Virus genome (UHGV): UHGV-0047852
Direction: 5' to 3' (one strand)
From: a virus
DNA: 11,553 bases
Shown: positions 1,427-8,173 of the stretch, piece after piece
Position numbering within the stretch: position 1 is the first letter of the stretch
Layout: every line of letters begins with the position of its first letter
Notes under the pieces: model-generated
Told to the model about the DNA's origin: nothing
The model's input: the letters and a program-made list of their open reading frames with translations, nothing else
The model's database searches: none
Made by a program: the position numbers and the translations under genes

Positions 1427-1448
1427 AGAAAAAACCGCCATCAGGCGG
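1427..1448 (-). terminator. Intrinsic terminator on minus strand (CCGCC-tgat-GGCGG stem followed by U7), overlapping the orf55 stop codon
   Basis: Plus strand reads AAAAAACCGCCATCAGGCGG; on the minus strand this is a 5-bp GC stem plus a T-run. Sits between orf55 and xis. Confidence 0.5.
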
Positions 1449-1608
1449 CTTGGTGTTCATTCAGTTCTTCAATTCGAATATTGGTTACGTCTGCATGTGC
1501 TATCTGCGCCCACAGCATCCAGTGGTCATAGCAGTCGCTGATGTTCTCGGCTTCGATAACTCTGTTGAATGGTTCTCCATTCCATTCACCTGTGACTCGG
1601 AAGTGCAT
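1441..1608 (-). CDS. Lambda orf55-like small protein (55 aa; MHFRVTGEWNGEPFNRVIEAENISDCYDHWMLWAQIAHADVTNIRIEELNEHQAA)
   Basis: Translated by hand from the minus strand; below the size cut-off of the supplied ORF track. Position just beyond xis matches lambda orf-55. Confidence 0.7.
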   Translation of the reverse strand: MHFRVTGEWNGEPFNRVIEAENISDCYDHWMLWAQIAHADVTNIRIEELNEHQAA

Positions 1609-2940: not shown

Positions 2941-2961
2941 AAAAAAGGAGCCTGTAGCTCC
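2941..2961 (-). terminator. Intrinsic terminator on minus strand (GGAGC-ctgta-GCTCC followed by U6) between orf61-like and TraR-like genes
   Basis: Plus strand AAAAAAGGAGCCTGTAGCTCC; on the minus strand this is a hairpin followed by a TTTTTTATT tract. Confidence 0.5.
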
Positions 2962-2983
2962 CTGATGATTTTGCTTTTCATGT

Positions 2984-3206: not shown

Positions 3207-3958
3207 TCACACTTCGAATGCCAGTTGAGGGGTAAAGACGTCCCGTTCAGCGTTGTAATTAAGTGAACTGGCACTGTTGAATGATTCAATGCGTTCCACA
3301 AGAACTTGCGTACGGGTTTCTTTACTTGCGGGAGCATATGGCGAACCTACCCAGGATTTGTCGATGCCTATATTTCTTGCGACGTTCGTGCTGTCTGCAG
3401 ACGAAAGCGGTACATGAGTAAAAATGTCTTTATTTAACATCCGTAACCCATGAATCTTGGTGATTGGGTAGCCGTACTGATCTACAACATGACGTATAAG
3501 ATCGCGTAGTTTAGCCCGACACGCTCTCGGTCGTTTTGCATCGTATTCCCCCATCGAGCCGATGCAGACGCGGGGAAACTCATGGCACAGACGAATAAAT
3601 CGCTCATCTGGTTCGTTCATGTGCCACACCGGAGCACCAATAAATTTACCGTGAGGCCATGCCGCAATCAGGGCGTCATTCTCTTCACTGGTTCCGCCGA
3701 TAACATCCGGGATAACCGCGAATGAGAAACGAGGGTGATTGCCCCAGCGTTCAACAAATTGTAATATTCATTCCAGTCTACGGCCTTGTTTTTTGTCCAG
3801 AATGTGAATGCACCATTATCAAGAGCAAATGATTGGGTGACTTCGGAAGCCAGATCAATCTGAGCTGGATTAGCAAAACTGATGAATGCGTGTCTGCCTT
3901 TCCAGGCTTTCAACGCACAGGTATCGGGAGTTATTGGACCACCGTGAAAATGAATCAT
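3207..3958 (-). pseudogene. Frameshifted gene for an unrecognised protein of about 250 aa (N-terminal part [31 protein letters not shown]…; C-terminal part …AVIPDVIGGTSEENDALIAAWPHGKFIGAPVWHMNEPDERF…QLAFEV) occupying the lambda orf63 position
   Basis: Two adjacent minus-strand ORFs (3668..3958 and 3207..3629) in different frames; extending the downstream frame upstream gives continuous plausible protein back to about 3768, so a single 1-nt indel near 3760-3770 would join them. The ATG at 3958 overlaps the orf60a-like stop (ATGA). Confidence 0.6.
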
Positions 3959-4113
3959 ACACTCTCCCGTTTATTATTTATCTCCTCAGCCAGCCGCTGG
4001 GCTTTCAGCGGATTTCGGATAACAGAAAGGCCGGGAAATACCCAGCCTCGCTTTGTAACGGAGTAGACGAAAGTGATCGCGCCTACCCGGATATTATCGT
4101 GAGGATGCGTCAT
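3955..4113 (-). CDS. Lambda orf60a-like small protein (52 aa, [52 protein letters not shown])
   Basis: Hand-translated; ATG overlaps the exo stop (ATGA) as in lambda; C-terminus diverges from lambda. Confidence 0.65.
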
Positions 4114-4790
4114 CGCCATTGCTCCCCAAATACAAAACCAATTTCAGCCAGTGCCTCGTCCATTTTTTCGATGAACTCCGGCACCATCTCGTCAAAACTC
4201 GCTATGTACTTTTCATCCCGCTCAACCACGACATAATGCAGGCCTTCACGCTTCATCCGCGGGTCATAGTTGGCAAAGTACCAGGCATCTTTTCGCGTCA
4301 CCCACATGCTGTACTGCACCTGGGCCATGTAAGCCGACTTTATGGCCTCGAAACCACCGAGCCGGAACTTCATGAAATCCCGGGAGGTAAACGGGCATTT
4401 CAGCTCAAGGCCATTGCCGTCACTGCATAAACCATCGGGAGAGCAGGCGGTGCGCATACTTTCGTCGCGATAGATGATCGGGGATTCAGTAACATTCACG
4501 CCGGAAGTGAACTCAAACAGGGTTCTGGCGTCGTTCTCGTACTGTTTTCCCCAGGCCAGTGCCTTAGCGTTAACTTCCGGAGCCACACCGGTGCAAACCT
4601 CGGCAAGCAGGGTGTGGAAGTAGGACATTTTCATGTCAGGCCATTTCTTTCCGGAGCGGGGTTTTGCTATCACATTGTGAACCTCTGAAGCGGTGATGAC
4701 GCCGAGCCGTAATTTGTGCCACGCATCATCCCCCTGTTCGACAGCTCTCACGTCGATCCCGGTACGCTGCAGTATAATGTCCGGTGTCAT
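4110..4790 (-). CDS. exo: Lambda exonuclease Exo (Red-alpha, 226 aa)
   Basis: Translation [65 protein letters not shown]… matches lambda Exo. Confidence 0.97.
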
Positions 4791-5572
4791 GCTGCCACCT
4801 TCTGCTCAGTGGCTTTCTGTTTCAGGAATCCAAGAGCTTTCACTGCTTCGGCCTGTGTCAGTTCTGACGATGCGCGAATGTCGCGGCGAAATATCTGGGA
4901 ACAGAGCGGCAATAAGTCGTCATCCCATGTTTTGTCCAGGGCAATCAGCAGAGTGTTAATCTCCTGCATGGTTTCATCGTTAACCGGAGTGATGTCGCGT
5001 TCCGGCTGACGTTCTGCAGTGTATGCGGTATTTTCGACAATGCGCTCGGCTTCATCCTTGTCATAGATACCAGCAAATCCGAAGGCCAGACGGGCACACT
5101 GAATCATGGCTTTATGACGTAACATCCGTTTGGGATGCGACTGCCACGGCCCCGTGATTTCTCTGCCTTCGCGGGTTTTGAATGGTTCGCGGCGGCATTC
5201 ATCCATCCACTCGGTAACGCAGATCGGATGATTGCGGTCCTTGCGGTAAATCCGGCATGTGCAGGATTCATTGTCCTGCTCAAAGTCCATACCATCAAAC
5301 TGCTGGTTTTCATTGATGATGCGGGACCAGCCATCAACGCCCACCAACGGAACGATGCCGTTCTGCTTATCAGGGAAGGCGTAAATTTCTTTCGTCCACG
5401 GATTAAGGCCGTACTGGTTGGCGACGATCAACAATGCGATGAACTGCGCATCGCTGGCATCACCTTTAAATGCCGTCTGGCGAAGAGTGGTGATCAGTTC
5501 CTGTGGGTCGACAGAATCCATGCCGACACGTTCAGCCAGCTTCCCTGCCAGCGTTGCGAGTGCTGTACTCAT
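4787..5572 (-). CDS. bet: Single-strand annealing recombinase Bet (Red-beta, 261 aa)
   Basis: Translation [82 protein letters not shown]… matches lambda Bet; overlaps the exo start. Confidence 0.97.
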
Positions 5573-5577
5573 CCGTT

Positions 5578-5874
5578 TTATACCTCTGAATCAATATCAA
5601 CCTGGTGGCGGGCAATAGTTTCAACCATGTACCGTATGTGTTCTGCCATGCGTTCCTGAAACTCAACATCGTCATCAAACGCACGGGTAATGGCTTTTTT
5701 GCTGGCCCCGTGGCGTTGCAAATGATCGATGCATAGCGATTCAAACAGGTGCTGGGGCAGGCCTTTTTCCATGTCGTCTGCCAGTTCTGCCTCTTTCTCT
5801 TCACGGGCGATCTGCTGGTAGTGACGCGCCCAGCTCTGAGCCTCAAGACGATCCTGAATGTAATAAGCGTTCAT
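5578..5874 (-). CDS. gam: RecBCD inhibitor Gam, short form (98 aa)
   Basis: Translation [60 protein letters not shown]… matches lambda GamS. An in-frame TAA lies 19 codons upstream, so the long form is not encoded. Confidence 0.95.
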
Positions 5875-5950: not shown

Positions 5951-6157
5951 TTAGTGATTCAGGCCGTTACCGCGTCCGTCGAGAAAAACTTCCACGAGCA
6001 AATCACGGGTATAAGTGCGCTCGATGCCGCGATGCAGATAAAGCCGTCCGCGTAAATTAGCTGATGCAGTCCAGGTACCATCTTTGTGTTTGACCAGCAT
6101 TCCTGGCATGACCGCACCTCGATTAACGGTCTGCGTTCCGTAATGTTGATGAACCAT
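5951..6157 (-). CDS. Hypothetical small protein in the lambda kil position (68 aa from MVHQHYGTQTVNRGAV…; alternative upstream start at 6241 gives 96 aa)
   Basis: ATG at 6157 has AGGAG SD with 5-nt spacer; the protein does not resemble lambda Kil or cIII. Confidence 0.5.
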   Translation of the reverse strand: MVHQHYGTQTVNRGAVMPGMLVKHKDGTWTASANLRGRLYLHRGIERTYTRDLLVEVFLDGRGNGLNH

Positions 6158-6434
6158 AAAAACTCCTGCCCGTAAGCTGGGCTGCTGAACATATAAAGAC
6201 TTCTGCGCGTATTCAGGCGGTGGATGGCCGCCGGTTGTCATAACTAAGCCGCCTCGTTGAAGCGACTAAGGTATGAAATGTTGAGTTAATTTCAGCTGGT
6301 CACACCGACGTTCACGCGTCCGTTTCACCCCTCGCACTCCCCGAAGCCTGCTGAAATTCAAACTGCGGATCTAAGCGGTCATCGCAACGGTGAATCAGGT
6401 AGTTGCCGTATCGTTGTGTTGTTGCGATGAACTT

Positions 6435-6463
6435 ATTTAAAACTATAGTTGTTTTATCGTCAA
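6435..6463 (-). promoter_or_regulatory. Candidate leftward early promoter pL (-35 TTGACG, 17-bp spacer, -10 TTAAAT) embedded in operator repeats
   Basis: Minus strand TTGACGataaaacaactatagttTTAAAT is closely parallel to the PR element at 7491-7519 (TTGACTaaaaacaaccatagtttTAATCT). Confidence 0.5.
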
Positions 6464-6512
6464 CAACAAAAGTTGTTTTATTGGTTGTTTTAGATATAAC
6501 TGGTTGTATTTA
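6448..6512. repeat. OL operator repeat array: three direct copies of GTTGTTTTA (6448-6456, 6472-6480, 6484-6492) plus GGTTGTATTTA, sharing the GGTTGT half-site with OR
   Basis: Repeats visible directly; the same GGTTGT/ACAACC half-sites form a palindrome at OR. Confidence 0.55.
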
Positions 6513-6602
6513 GGATGGATTTATTTTGTGACTTGAATCGCATAGCGATAACTGAAGCGAGGTTATGGTGGTTTTTTTAACGGTGTGTGTGATGAGGGGA
6601 GG

Positions 6603-6631
6603 GCAAAAGAAAACCCGGCACGGTGACCGGG
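6603..6631 (-). terminator. Intrinsic terminator on minus strand downstream of the repressor gene (CCCGG-8 nt loop-CCGGG followed by UUUUCUUUUG)
   Basis: Plus strand GCAAAAGAAAACCCGGCACGGTGACCGGG; the reverse complement gives a hairpin plus U-tract about 120 nt past the repressor stop. Confidence 0.55.
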
Positions 6632-6752
6632 ATTCTTACGCCGTTAGGTAAAGATATTATTGCGGTGGCTTAATATTACTACCTAGAGCAAAGATAGGAA
6701 TTAGTTCTTTACTGAATGAGCACAATGCCCAGTTGATAATTTTTAATTGGTA

Positions 6753-7442
6753 CTACCCATGCTTCCTATATGTCTGCGGCATGCTCCCAATAACCTTACC
6801 GAAGATGAACACCCGGTTCATCTCGTCTTTCTCGATCGGGTCCCACGGTGAGTAGCTTTTGTTATCAGAGATGACCAGCAGCTTATCCTTCATCATTTGC
6901 AGGCGCTTTACATGGGCTGTGTCGTCGTACAGAAACGCATAGATACCATCACCGTCGAAAGATTTAACTGTGATATCAACGAACAGCAGATCACCTGGTT
7001 CGATCGTTCCTGACATGCTGTCACCACGCACGTTAATGATGCGGATATTTTCCGCCTTCCTACCATCGAACATGTGACGAGCATCGTCAAACGAGTACTC
7101 AACCGAGCGTAGAACTTCTACAAACTCACGGTTGATGACTCCCGGCCCAGCACTGACTTCTATATCAAGAACGTCAATCTTGAAGTATTTGGAATGGCTG
7201 ACAGTTGATTGTATTGGTTGCACTGTACTGTCTGACATATTTCCAACGCCAGAAGATAACCATTCTGCGCGCACACCCAAAGCGTTCGCGATCTCCACGA
7301 TTTTAGTTGTTTGATTAGCTTTCCCTGTTTCGATTTTCTGAATAGCAGCCTGGCTAACCCCGACCAAATCCCCAAGCGCCTTTTGTGTAAGGCCTCGCGC
7401 TAATCTGGCTTCTTTAAGTCTTTCTGAGAGTGTTGTTTTCAT
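6753..7442 (-). CDS. CI-like prophage repressor (229 aa; N-terminal XRE-type HTH, C-terminal LexA/S24 peptidase-like autocleavage domain)
   Basis: HTH region LARGLTQKALGDLVGVSQAAIQKIETGK; S24 signature GDSMSGTIEPGDLLFVD with downstream KRL. Start chosen at MKTTLSERLKEA (7442); the 251-aa track ORF runs into the operator. Confidence 0.85.
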   Translation of the reverse strand: MKTTLSERLKEARLARGLTQKALGDLVGVSQAAIQKIETGKANQTTKIVEIANALGVRAEWLSSGVGNMSDSTVQPIQSTVSHSKYFKIDVLDIEVSAGPGVINREFVEVLRSVEYSFDDARHMFDGRKAENIRIINVRGDSMSGTIEPGDLLFVDITVKSFDGDGIYAFLYDDTAHVKRLQMMKDKLLVISDNKSYSPWDPIEKDEMNRVFIFGKVIGSMPQTYRKHG

Positions 7443-7450
7443 AGTCCAAA

Positions 7451-7519
7451 TGTACAACCAAGGTTTTATTCCATCAAACGAAAATGGTTGTTGACTAAAA
7501 ACAACCATAGTTTTAATCT
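7451..7519 (+). promoter_or_regulatory. OR/PR region: 25-bp palindromic operator ATGGTTGTTGACTAAAAACAACCAT (7484-7508), extra half-site TGTACAACCA (7451-7460), PR -35 TTGACT (7491-7496) and -10 TAATCT (7514-7519); divergent PRM-like element for the repressor on the minus strand
   Basis: Perfect dyad symmetry, 17-bp spacer promoter, GGAGG SD before the cro-like ATG at 7547. On the minus strand TTGATG-17-TACATT ends 6 nt before the repressor ATG, suggesting a leaderless transcript. Confidence 0.65.
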
Positions 7520-7546
7520 TGATTCAAATTAACCACGGAGGTTGTT

Positions 7547-7777
7547 ATGAACCCAGCTATCAAAACAGCGATCAATATCGTTGGTTCACAAAAGAAACTG
7601 GGCGCTGCTTGCGAAGTTTCACAGCAGGCCGTCTATAAGTGGCTTCACAACAAAGCAAAGGTATCCCCTGAACATGTCGGCAGCATTGTTACGGCTACTG
7701 GTGGAGTAGTGAAGGCATACCAGATTCGCCCGGATCTTCCGAAGTTGTTTCCACACACCGAAAAGAACGCAGCTTAA
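7547..7777 (+). CDS. Cro-like small HTH regulator (76 aa, YdaS-like)
   Basis: Small HTH protein (GSQKKLGAACEVSQQAVYKWL) divergent from the repressor with strong SD; resembles Rac YdaS-type Cro from memory. Confidence 0.75.
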   Translation: MNPAIKTAINIVGSQKKLGAACEVSQQAVYKWLHNKAKVSPEHVGSIVTATGGVVKAYQIRPDLPKLFPHTEKNAA

Positions 7778-7846
7778 ATTTCCATTTCACGCTCTTTAAC
7801 AATAAGCAATCAACTTAACAGTCAATTCAAACTAAAGGAGTCAATT

Positions 7847-8173
7847 ATGCAACCACTTACATACCAACAGACTAGCGGATTTAGCCCGACTGCGGTGATA
7901 AATCGTTCTCAAACAAAACAGGTGCCAGGCCACGAAAAAATCCGTGATGCCGTCCGCGCCTGGTCGGCTGTAGATAATCAGGATGTCGTTGCCACACTCA
8001 TTGTGAATGAGTATCGGGAGCAGGGCGGCGGCACCATCGATTTCCCTGATGATGTCAGCCGTGCACGCCAGAAGCTGTTCCGCTTCCTCGATAACAAATT
8101 CGATTCTGAAAAATACCGAAATAATGTGCGTGAACTGACCCCGGCAATTCTGGCGGTACTACCGCTGGAATAA
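7847..8173 (+). CDS. YdaT-like (CII-position) protein, apparently C-terminally truncated (108 aa)
   Basis: Similarity from memory to Rac YdaT (motifs EYREQGGG and PAILAVLP); AAAGGAG SD. The ORF stops soon after the PAILA(V/I)LP motif whereas YdaT continues about 30 aa. Confidence 0.55.
   Translation: MQPLTYQQTSGFSPTAVINRSQTKQVPGHEKIRDAVRAWSAVDNQDVVATLIVNEYREQGGGTIDFPDDVSRARQKLFRFLDNKFDSEKYRNNVRELTPAILAVLPLE

Follow-up and report, generated by a model that had tools for sequence, protein, structure and literature searches.

What controls the early leftward operon of a lambdoid phage that has no N gene, and what then fills the stretch between the leftward promoter pL and the first gene behind it? 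Textbook early-gene timing in lambdoid phages is a matter of antitermination, either by N together with its nut sites or by put RNA in HK022 and its relatives. The question arises for UHGV virus genome UHGV-0047852, analysed here as a stretch of 11,553 nucleotides (nt; hereafter the window), which gene calls and profile matches identify as the early region of a lambdoid prophage, and which is an E. coli prophage without N. Its predicted pL is followed by an untranslated leader of ~271 nt (6428-6158, minus strand) that runs up to kil, the first gene of the operon. The initial annotation, made from the sequence alone, had seen ~270 nt without a convincing open reading frame (ORF) at this place, as was borne out, and had proposed a put-like antitermination RNA.

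I found that the leader is constrained, that it is not a member of the HK022-type put family, and that one hairpin in its 3' half covaries across phages. The reading I prefer, to which I would give a probability of roughly 45%, is that 6158-6428 forms a cis-acting regulatory untranslated 5' leader of the pL operon, standing in for the cassette of N or put and the terminator tL1 that other lambdoid phages carry.

Position and anatomy of the leader

The features of the promoter, the leader and the first gene are as follows.

6435-6463, minus strand: pL, with -35 TTGACG (6463-6458), a 17-nt spacer and -10 TTAAAT (6440-6435), within AAAACAAC-type operator repeats
6381-6428, minus strand: stem-loop A (SL-A), the predicted 5'-terminal hairpin of the pL transcript, in which AUCGCAAC pairs with GUUGCGAU around a 32-nt C/A-rich loop
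6404-6427, minus strand: tract complementary to the R1 seed of the small RNA (sRNA) GcvB, with a perfect 12-mer CAACAACACAAC at 6413-6424
6359-6380, minus strand: linker 1 (GACCGCUUAGAUCCGCAGUUUG), nearly invariant
6288-6358, minus strand: stem-loop B (SL-B), the inverted repeat of the initial annotation, with arms at 6347-6358 and 6288-6299 and a 47-nt G-rich core
6304-6323, minus strand: inner hairpin ACGGACG-CGUGAA-CGUCGGU in the SL-B core, as predicted by RNAalifold
6276-6287, minus strand: linker 2 (AACUCAACAUUU), where other phages have the hairpin and U-tract of tL1
6158-6275, minus strand: post-tL1 module, comprising CAUACCU, HP1, UAGUUAUGA, HP2 and then GCGCAGAAGUCU
6239-6275 (core 6247-6267), minus strand: HP1 extended helix, which buries a GAGG and the AUG at 6239-6241
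6216-6232, minus strand: HP2, GGCGG-CCAUCCA-CCGCC, with stem and loop almost invariant across phages
5951-6157, minus strand: kil, encoding an FtsZ inhibitor, the first gene of the pL operon (207 nt, 68 amino acids)

The candidate pL can be taken as real because it is a near-copy (paralog) of pR: ~30 nt of the pL region are near-identical to pR at 7484-7520 (inverted-repeat pairs, one at 95%). The predicted transcription start (+1) is A6428, and where relatives differ in immunity type (ten phages, many genomes) their similarity begins at just this point (6427/6428); in the O157/O55-type group it begins at 6394 instead. Across these relatives the promoter varies with immunity type and the transcript is kept from +1, so that the leader survives a swap of the immunity region exactly at +1. 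The Klebsiella phage ST101-KPC2phi6.1 has the same promoter type and a transcript that is alike for the first ~25 nt only and then diverges, which made it useless for structure comparison.

The leader is a composite, with a family-specific 5' half (6276-6428) and a 3' module (6158-6275) shared with other phages. At the extreme 5' end lies a perfect 10-nt inverted repeat (6379-6388 with 6421-6430) that had gone unmentioned in the initial annotation and underlies SL-A, a hairpin of 8-10 perfect base pairs (bp) with a local fold of -7.9 to -12.4 kcal/mol. The O157-type variant keeps 7/8 of these pairs although its 32-nt loop is replaced by unrelated sequence. The 9-bp perfect inverted repeat reported earlier is present at 6288-6296 and 6350-6358, and the 12-nt arms of SL-B built on it are 92% complementary. 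Folded alone, the segment 6286-6360 gives a Y-shaped domain closed by the repeat stem (-26.4 kcal/mol). Linker 2 lacks a U-tract and is therefore not a terminator; 4 relatives carry a 5-nt TCAAC duplication in it.

As a separate observation, UUCAGCAG is present twice on the minus strand (6183-6190 and 6346-6353), which leaves the 3' arm GCUGAA (6291-6296) with two possible partners, the upstream arm of the SL-B stem or a site ~25 nt before the kil Shine-Dalgarno (SD) sequence. RNAalifold favours the latter, and the two partners may represent alternative pairing.

Constraint and distribution

Polymorphism was assessed in 88 different haplotypes covering the region from the leader to bet inclusive. 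Nucleotide diversity (pi) was 0.0275 in linker 1, 0.030-0.039 in SL-B and 0.024 in the 3' module, compared with 0.106, 0.086 and 0.110 at the four-fold degenerate sites of kil, gam and bet, respectively, and 0.024-0.051 at first and second codon positions. The leader at 6158-6380 is thus 3-4 times less polymorphic than the synonymous sites of the adjacent genes, and sites with a minor-allele frequency of at least 5% are correspondingly scarce (17/223 in the leader vs 57/191 at four-fold sites; Fisher p = 3e-9). The exception is the 32-nt loop of SL-A, which varies in a neutral-like manner (pi 0.12). The probe used for collecting the sequences does not explain the low diversity: an independent second anchor gave the same contigs, and one estimate was made without the probe positions. 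Being constrained relative to synonymous sites, the leader is a functional non-coding element, and I infer that the constraint acts on RNA and that the role of this RNA is regulatory.

The leader is also common. A match was found in 2315 of 5426 complete E. coli genomes (~40%), covering at least 80% of the query in 2033 and reaching at least 95% identity in 2169, and the carriers include O157:H7, uropathogenic E. coli (UPEC) 536 and ST131 strains. No description of the leader or of the post-tL1 module was found in Rfam, in record annotations or in the literature searched (Bievrevirus, N-independent lambdoid early regulation, Pas/AgvB sRNAs), and an Rfam cmscan of the whole window at E <= 10, with the AgvB and AsxR families included, returned 4 chance-level hits, none of them in 6158-6430.

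The shared post-tL1 module and kil

By distant blastn, ~60 nt of the leader (6216-6278) recur in phi80, HK225 and HK639 and in Enterobacter, Salmonella and Klebsiella phages. There, the module (CAUACCU, a hairpin, UAGUUAUGA and GGCGGCCAUCCACCGCC) stands directly 3' of a canonical intrinsic terminator and ahead of a kil-containing gene block; in phi80 the preceding terminator is tL1A, located behind N, and in HK639, where put and two ORFs come before it, it is the first of a pair of annotated terminators. Window positions 6216-6275 match all blocks of the module. A pattern scan of IMG/VR recovered at least 120 module loci with 40 versions of the hairpin, and the carriers, among them CobraSix, S9-5 and many IMG/VR phages besides the three phages named above, comprise N-type and put-type lambdoid phages of Escherichia, Salmonella, Enterobacter and Klebsiella.

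Within this module, HP1 is the one structure in 6158-6430 with real evolutionary support. Across 35 representatives its pairing is kept at 97.9%, and in 7 pairs both partners have changed, with G-U pairs among the changes; its covariation of 0.340 compares with 0.121 in shuffles (0/500 reach the score) and with 0.03-0.08 after sliding of the 3' partners. Between the AUG at 6239-6241 and HP2 lie 3 to 9 nt, depending on the phage, and conservation is therefore not at the peptide level. An upstream ORF starting at this AUG (MTTGGHPPP...) was considered as a proline-stalling leader peptide and rejected, as indels shift its frame within and between families; translation of the upstream ORF as such is possible. 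Some phages have a U-run after HP2; HK639 is one of them, and its annotation calls HP2 a terminator. In the window HP2 lacks such a run. The GGCGG at the start of HP2 resembles the ops element of RfaH, and HP2 was discarded as such an element on inspection, since the remainder of the sequence differs. A candidate LexA box at CTGAATACGCGCAG (~6202-6215) was dismissed in the same way: the LexA consensus has an N10 spacing, and the spacing here is N8.

No equivalent of tL1 was found in the leader, neither as a GC-rich hairpin with a U-tract before CAUACCU nor in a terminator scan of 6158-6430, which was empty. At the tL1 position other phages have GCCGCC...GGCGGC followed by U5-7, and the window has ...GCUGAAAUUAACUCAACAUUU; in the family of phages to which the leader belongs, the 3' arm of SL-B and AACUCAACAUUU occupy the place of the tL1 hairpin and its U-tract. 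The family layout is pL, ~150 nt of family-specific RNA without a terminator, the module, and kil. The nutL-N-tL1 cassette (as in phi80) or the put-ORFs-tL1 cassette (as in HK639) is here replaced as a unit by ~150 nt of non-coding RNA.

The gene following the module had been described as a small unrelated ORF before gam, and that description has to be corrected: it is kil (phrog_294, E = 1.3e-37; NCBIfam FtsZ inhibitor, 1.8e-17), present here as in lambda and called with the same start by PGAP in relatives. Its SD sequence AGGAG (6163-6167) is strong and lies five bases before the ATG at 6155-6157.

Folding and covariation of the 5' half

The initial annotation had suggested that the transcript be folded. 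When the minus-strand leader was folded, the SL-B repeat stem was absent from the minimum free energy (MFE) structure. For the conservation analysis, 67 distinct IMG/VR variants were aligned, with a mean column identity of 88%; RNAalifold predicted 60 pairs on this alignment, with no compensatory change and without choosing the SL-B repeat stem. An explicit model comprising SL-A, SL-B, the inner hairpin, HP1 and HP2 was then scored on the leader variants, and 96.7% of cells were paired, with 0 double changes. It gained 11 extra pair types, all of them one-sided pair-preserving wobbles, compared with 1-6 when the 3' partners were slid. The inner hairpin was paired in 100% of cells, and two of its pairs showed changes from A-U to G-U or from C-G to U-G.

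The family is shallow, which accounts for the lack of compensatory covariation in SL-A and SL-B, and deeper homologs did not turn up: two leader patterns gave 0 matches in 185,579 species-representative genomes, and a second k-mer anchor recovered the same contigs. The structures of SL-A and SL-B are, on this model, compatible with the data, and the stem noted earlier has wobble-compatible changes in homologous prophages and no compensatory ones. The repeat on which it was based is likewise only partly upheld. It is present and folds locally, but is only modestly beyond chance, as 13/300 dinucleotide shuffles of the leader contain a perfect repeat of 9 bp or longer whose loop does not exceed 100 nt (p ~0.04), and the outermost A-U of the 9-bp stem is found in only 13/66 relatives, the repeat being 8 bp in most.

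Comparison with put RNAs

In its location the leader is put-like, starting at the predicted +1 of pL in a phage without N. A covariance model was built from 7 put RNAs (HK022 putL and putR, the HK639 putL-like RNA and four more homologs), the alignment of which has two stems of 16 pairs, 7 of them covarying, and 29 invariant columns. The model recognised copies on which it had not been trained, with 59 bits for phiEt88 putR, 87-99 bits for 13 IMG/VR copies and 58 bits for a second copy in one locus, and the later search covered 1 Mb of related loci. No hit was obtained in minus-strand 6150-6430 at E <= 10 with filters off, or in 20 loci of the leader's phage family, and blastn with HK022 putL found no member of this family. 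The put profile sought, GAACGGC...GUCGG for stem I and GGCGGGUUCAGGAUGAACGGCAAU for stem II, does not occur in the leader. Positions 6304-6325 (GAAACGGACGCG...CGUCGG) look superficially like put stem I (GAACGGCGCG...CGUCGG) and received no score from the model. Of the loci with tL1 and the module, 13/80 carry put; none of the window-type loci does.

A rightward second copy, corresponding to putR, was sought as well. A blastn search of the window gave no paralog of the leader outside its own position, the best match being 15 nt long with E = 0.16, and the local alignment of the left and right regions was not significant, 83/1000 shuffles reaching its score. putR is present in HK022 and phiEt88 and was not found in the stretches of HK639 or CobraSix that were examined. 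Membership of the leader in the HK022-type put family is ruled out by the covariance model and blastn. The put-like proposal, taken as a statement about family, therefore falls: neither the leader nor its 20 relatives are hit by the model, no rightward copy exists in the window, and the repeat stem noted earlier gives no covariation in this shallow family.

Search for N, nut sites and small proteins

That the prophage has no N gene, as had been claimed, was confirmed. The only ORFs of at least 20 amino acids in the leader are a 31-amino-acid ORF with a TTG start and an in-frame extension of kil, neither of them N-like; none of the small leftward ORFs tested matched N in Pfam, PHROG or NCBIfam, and no N is annotated in the stretches of PhiR34_1 and 4A7 that were examined. 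A boxA with up to 3 mismatches was not found on the minus strand of 6150-6430, nor was a boxB or nutL between pL and the first gene. The only exact boxA in the window is CGCTCTTTAACA at 7790-7801 (plus strand), 13 nt after the cro stop in the nutR position, with no boxB-like hairpin visible behind it on inspection. Relatives with a different cro, such as 4A7, lack this boxA and have cro and the cII-like gene 30 nt apart; it may be a vestige or an anti-Rho element that works with Nus factors only. A 15-nt motif shared between left and right, CGCAGYTTRAATTTC (6353-6367 and 7768-7782), was tried as a nut-like pairing and rejected, being not significant and absent in relatives with another cro.

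One small frame within the leader is the following.

6266-6361, minus strand: 31-amino-acid arginine-rich ORF, MNFSRLRGVRGVKRTRERRCDQ..., including ...RLRGVRGVKRTRERRCDQ..., overlapping SL-B

The leader might on this basis encode a small protein, either this ORF as a mini-N or a longer Kil isoform from 6241, and I regard this as very improbable. The KRTRERR stretch of the 31-amino-acid ORF is arginine-rich and recalls the RNA-binding motifs of N proteins, and in the window the kil frame extends back to an ATG at 6241. But the 31-amino-acid ORF has a TTG start and no SD upstream, tblastn finds nothing outside the leader's phage family and PHROGs give no N or other family, its common polymorphisms have no third-position bias, and relatives carry a 1-nt insertion and a 5-nt duplication inside it; as a coding sequence it was rejected on these grounds. 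It is also too short at 31 amino acids for the NusA- and RNA polymerase (RNAP)-binding regions, which in lambda N, a protein of 107 amino acids, follow the arginine-rich motif. The ORF from 6241, in turn, is frameshifted by 1- or 2-nt indels in several relatives, and the spacing between AUG and HP2 differs from phage to phage by non-multiples of 3.

Terminators of the leftward operon

The proposal of an antitermination element had been founded on terminators further down the operon, and these do exist.

2945-2963, minus strand: strong intrinsic terminator with an 8-bp stem and a U run, upstream of a TraR/DksA-like gene, xis and int
1432-1451, minus strand, also called on the plus strand: strong terminator-like hairpin ~30 nt upstream of xis
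1678-1659 and 1647-1628, minus strand: intrinsic terminators from the terminator scan

The terminator at 2963-2945 is conserved in 4A7 and PhiR34_1, and the segment around it shares 95-97% identity with lambda (DE3), 933W/Stx phages, SfI and the put phage O276, in which putL is annotated. The same terminator is thus found in N phages (933W, lambda), in a put phage (O276), and here without a known antiterminator. Polymerase modified by N or put is expected to read through its counterparts in lambda (DE3), 933W and O276. In the part of the rightward operon that the window covers, the scan detected no strong plus-strand terminator. The argument that the phage needs readthrough is supported in so far as a conserved strong terminator precedes the TraR-like gene, xis and int, but it is weakened because tL1 is missing together with N or put.

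Candidate functions of the leader

Phages of the leader's family, Bievrevirus such as 4A7 together with Perceval, PhiR34_1 and Turner, have neither N/nut nor an HK022-type put, and I think that a regulatory leader is the more likely reading than a processive antiterminator of the HK022 type. On the proposed mechanism, the family would have dispensed with the N/put-tL1 timing device, and the leader would set how much transcription and translation from pL reaches the toxic kil and gam-bet-exo. Candidate means are transcript stability conferred by the 5'-terminal hairpin, the structure of the leader, and possibly the docking of a factor or sRNA; SL-A, the constrained G-rich domain and HP1/HP2 would together set the output of kil and the recombination genes. 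Several points weigh against this. The +1, and with it the existence of a leader RNA, is predicted from sequence. The whole leader folds no better than shuffles (MFE z = 0.13; 0.69 for the 5' 154 nt), and SL-A and SL-B show 0 compensatory changes among the 67 variants, albeit in a shallow family. As the sites are linked, part of the low diversity could stem from a recent sweep or from recombination. The conserved strong terminator downstream argues that some readthrough device could be needed after all. Lastly, the proposed action is generic, and no attenuator, alternative of terminator and antiterminator, rut site, ligand pocket or sequestration of the kil SD was found in the leader.

If some readthrough device is needed, the leader could be a new, non-put processive antiterminator that acts in cis, with nascent SL-A/SL-B modifying RNAP so that it reads through 2963-2945 and 1451-1432 to the traR-like gene, xis and int. 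Its place immediately after pL, like that of putL, would suit such a role, as would the two stem-loop architecture, the absence of N, nutL and put alike, and a strong conserved terminator in the operon on a segment shared with lambda (DE3), 933W and O276; moreover, ~100 nt of family-specific RNA constrained at the sequence level fits sequence-specific contacts as in put. I nevertheless consider it unlikely. The covariance model sees no similarity to put, the pR operon has no second copy and, within the window, no strong terminator, and the stem-loops give neither covariation nor a thermodynamic signal. The promoter-proximal tL1 has gone along with N or put, which removes the most immediate need for readthrough, and members of the family form plaques; xis, int and the neighbouring genes behind the terminator are dispensable in lambda for lytic growth and plaque formation. 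A broader version, that 6276-6428 is an unrecognised non-put cis RNA which makes RNAP termination-resistant or otherwise replaces N or put, perhaps with capture of GcvB in addition, I hold to be rather unlikely.

GcvB comes into consideration through the 5' end of the leader, of which nt 5-16 (CAACAACACAAC) perfectly complement GUUGUGUUGUUG of the GcvB R1 seed (MG1655). A perfect complement of at least 12 nt occurs in 1/500 dinucleotide shuffles, and no other GcvB-R1 site in ~72 kb of phage strands ranks above the predicted duplex (nt 2-25, 21-23 bp, -28.9 kcal/mol). The 5' end could accordingly be a docking site or sponge that titrates GcvB, or GcvB with Hfq might open SL-A and alter stability or access of Rho; A-to-G variants in the tract would retain pairing as G-U, and a precedent is AgvB, a prophage-encoded anti-GcvB sRNA with the CACAACA target consensus in its 5' end (PMC4104026). 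This sequence-derived proposal looks improbable, however, as I noticed the match post hoc, with many sRNAs to choose from, and it joins two low-complexity sequences (C/A vs G/U), with unrelated phage windows coming within 1-2 kcal/mol. The tract lies in the least constrained part of the leader, the SL-A loop is neutral-like, the O157-type leader does without the tract (-12.1 kcal/mol), the site is ~260 nt from the first start codon, and in lysogens pL is presumably under repression; a role in GcvB binding would also leave the constraint on 6158-6394 unexplained. There might, finally, be no RNA function at all, with the region acting at the DNA level, as a protein site or a junction for module recombination, or owing its uniformity to the recent spread of a haplotype, and the repeats being incidental. 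The family is young and narrow, as the search of species-representative genomes indicated, mosaic breakpoints fall exactly on the edges of the leader (6427/6428, 6394, CAUACC), and the missing covariation of SL-A and SL-B and the p of only ~0.04 for the inverted repeat would be in keeping with this. I give it a low probability: a sweep of the whole block would not leave the leader 3-4 times less diverse than kil synonymous sites in the same genomes, the SL-A loop of the same leader varies at a neutral rate, the compensatory changes in HP1 are strand-consistent and, with their G-U pairs, indicate RNA, and all substitutions in the stems preserve pairing.

Knowing what the leader does would show either that a large share of E. 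coli prophages does without processive antitermination in the early left operon, or that these use a new RNA device, and both outcomes matter for how the prophages are induced and excised and how the toxic kil is expressed. Should a non-put leader RNA of the antiterminating kind turn out to be real, it would add a third way of achieving early antitermination in lambdoid phages, in a very common family of E. coli prophages. The post-tL1 module is a second uncharacterised RNA element, widespread in N-type and put-type phages of several enterobacterial genera.

Gene context and relatives

The other genes assigned in the window are listed below.

135-1205, leftward: int
1183-1401, leftward: xis
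4110-4790, leftward: exo
4787-5572, leftward: bet
5578-5874, leftward: gam
6753-7508, minus strand: cI repressor (S24/HTH), with its own terminator at 6631-6614
7547-7777, plus strand: cro
7847-8173, plus strand: YdaT/cII-like gene

Plaque-forming close relatives are PhiR34_1, Turner, PhiR47_2, IdasGreatGrand, 4A7/4C10 (genus Bievrevirus), 1W, 3W, D2 and Perceval. Several observations were made on the side. The YdaT/cII-like gene stops after 108 amino acids and spans only 1-94 of the 168 positions of phrog_163, the PhiR34_1 copy having 179 amino acids, and the adjacent minus-strand ORFs at 3671-3958 and 3210-3629 match successive parts of a single PHROG, phrog_887. Both the gene and the ORF pair look frameshifted, and this copy of the prophage may be decaying. 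The slot between cI and pL (6464-6752, the position of rexAB in lambda) holds the cI terminator alone in the window; in relatives its cargo is a GevA/GevT toxin-antitoxin pair, a SIR2-family protein, a HipA-family kinase with DUF3037, or an ASCH-domain protein with a second gene, and the slot looks like a hotspot for defence genes. A plus-strand ORF of 200 amino acids (1851-2453; phrog_1416, unknown function) is inserted against the direction of the leftward operon; placed between the recombination genes and xis/int, it has the look of a moron.

Comparison with known systems

The closest likeness is to HK022 put and the HK639 putL-like RNA, which share with the leader a non-coding nature, a place directly after pL in an N-less lambdoid phage, strong conservation, and terminators further down the operon. 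The put-carrying phages HK639, CobraSix and S9-5 even have the same post-tL1 module as the 3' half of the leader. put suppresses pausing and termination independently of other factors, via the beta' zinc-binding domain of RNAP (PMC9378689). The differences lie in the layout, with stem-loops of 48 nt and 71 nt that are 22 nt apart in the leader and two adjacent stems in ~74 nt of put; in tL1, which is downstream in put phages and absent in the leader's family; and in the rightward copy, sequence and structure, none of which is matched here.

Of the lambda-type N/nut systems, the nutL-N-tL1 arrangement of phi80 is nearest in layout, as it occupies the same slot between pL and the kil, gam and recombination genes and is followed by the same module, whereas the leader's family has no N ORF and no leftward boxA or boxB, and a boxA only at the nutR position. 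AgvB and AsxR (Rfam RF02702/RF02703) are likewise RNAs of E. coli lambdoid prophages with a C/A-rich 5' end that resembles a GcvB target. AgvB, however, is an sRNA of 51-60 nt encoded downstream of PR' in the late region (PMC4104026), whereas the leader is an mRNA leader without a terminator of its own and without an Rfam match. The leader further resembles the long structured 5' untranslated regions that gate toxic or early genes, given its length, its 5'-terminal hairpin, its conserved hairpins and the toxic first gene kil. By kind I would place it among the cis-acting leader RNAs of phage early operons, outside put.

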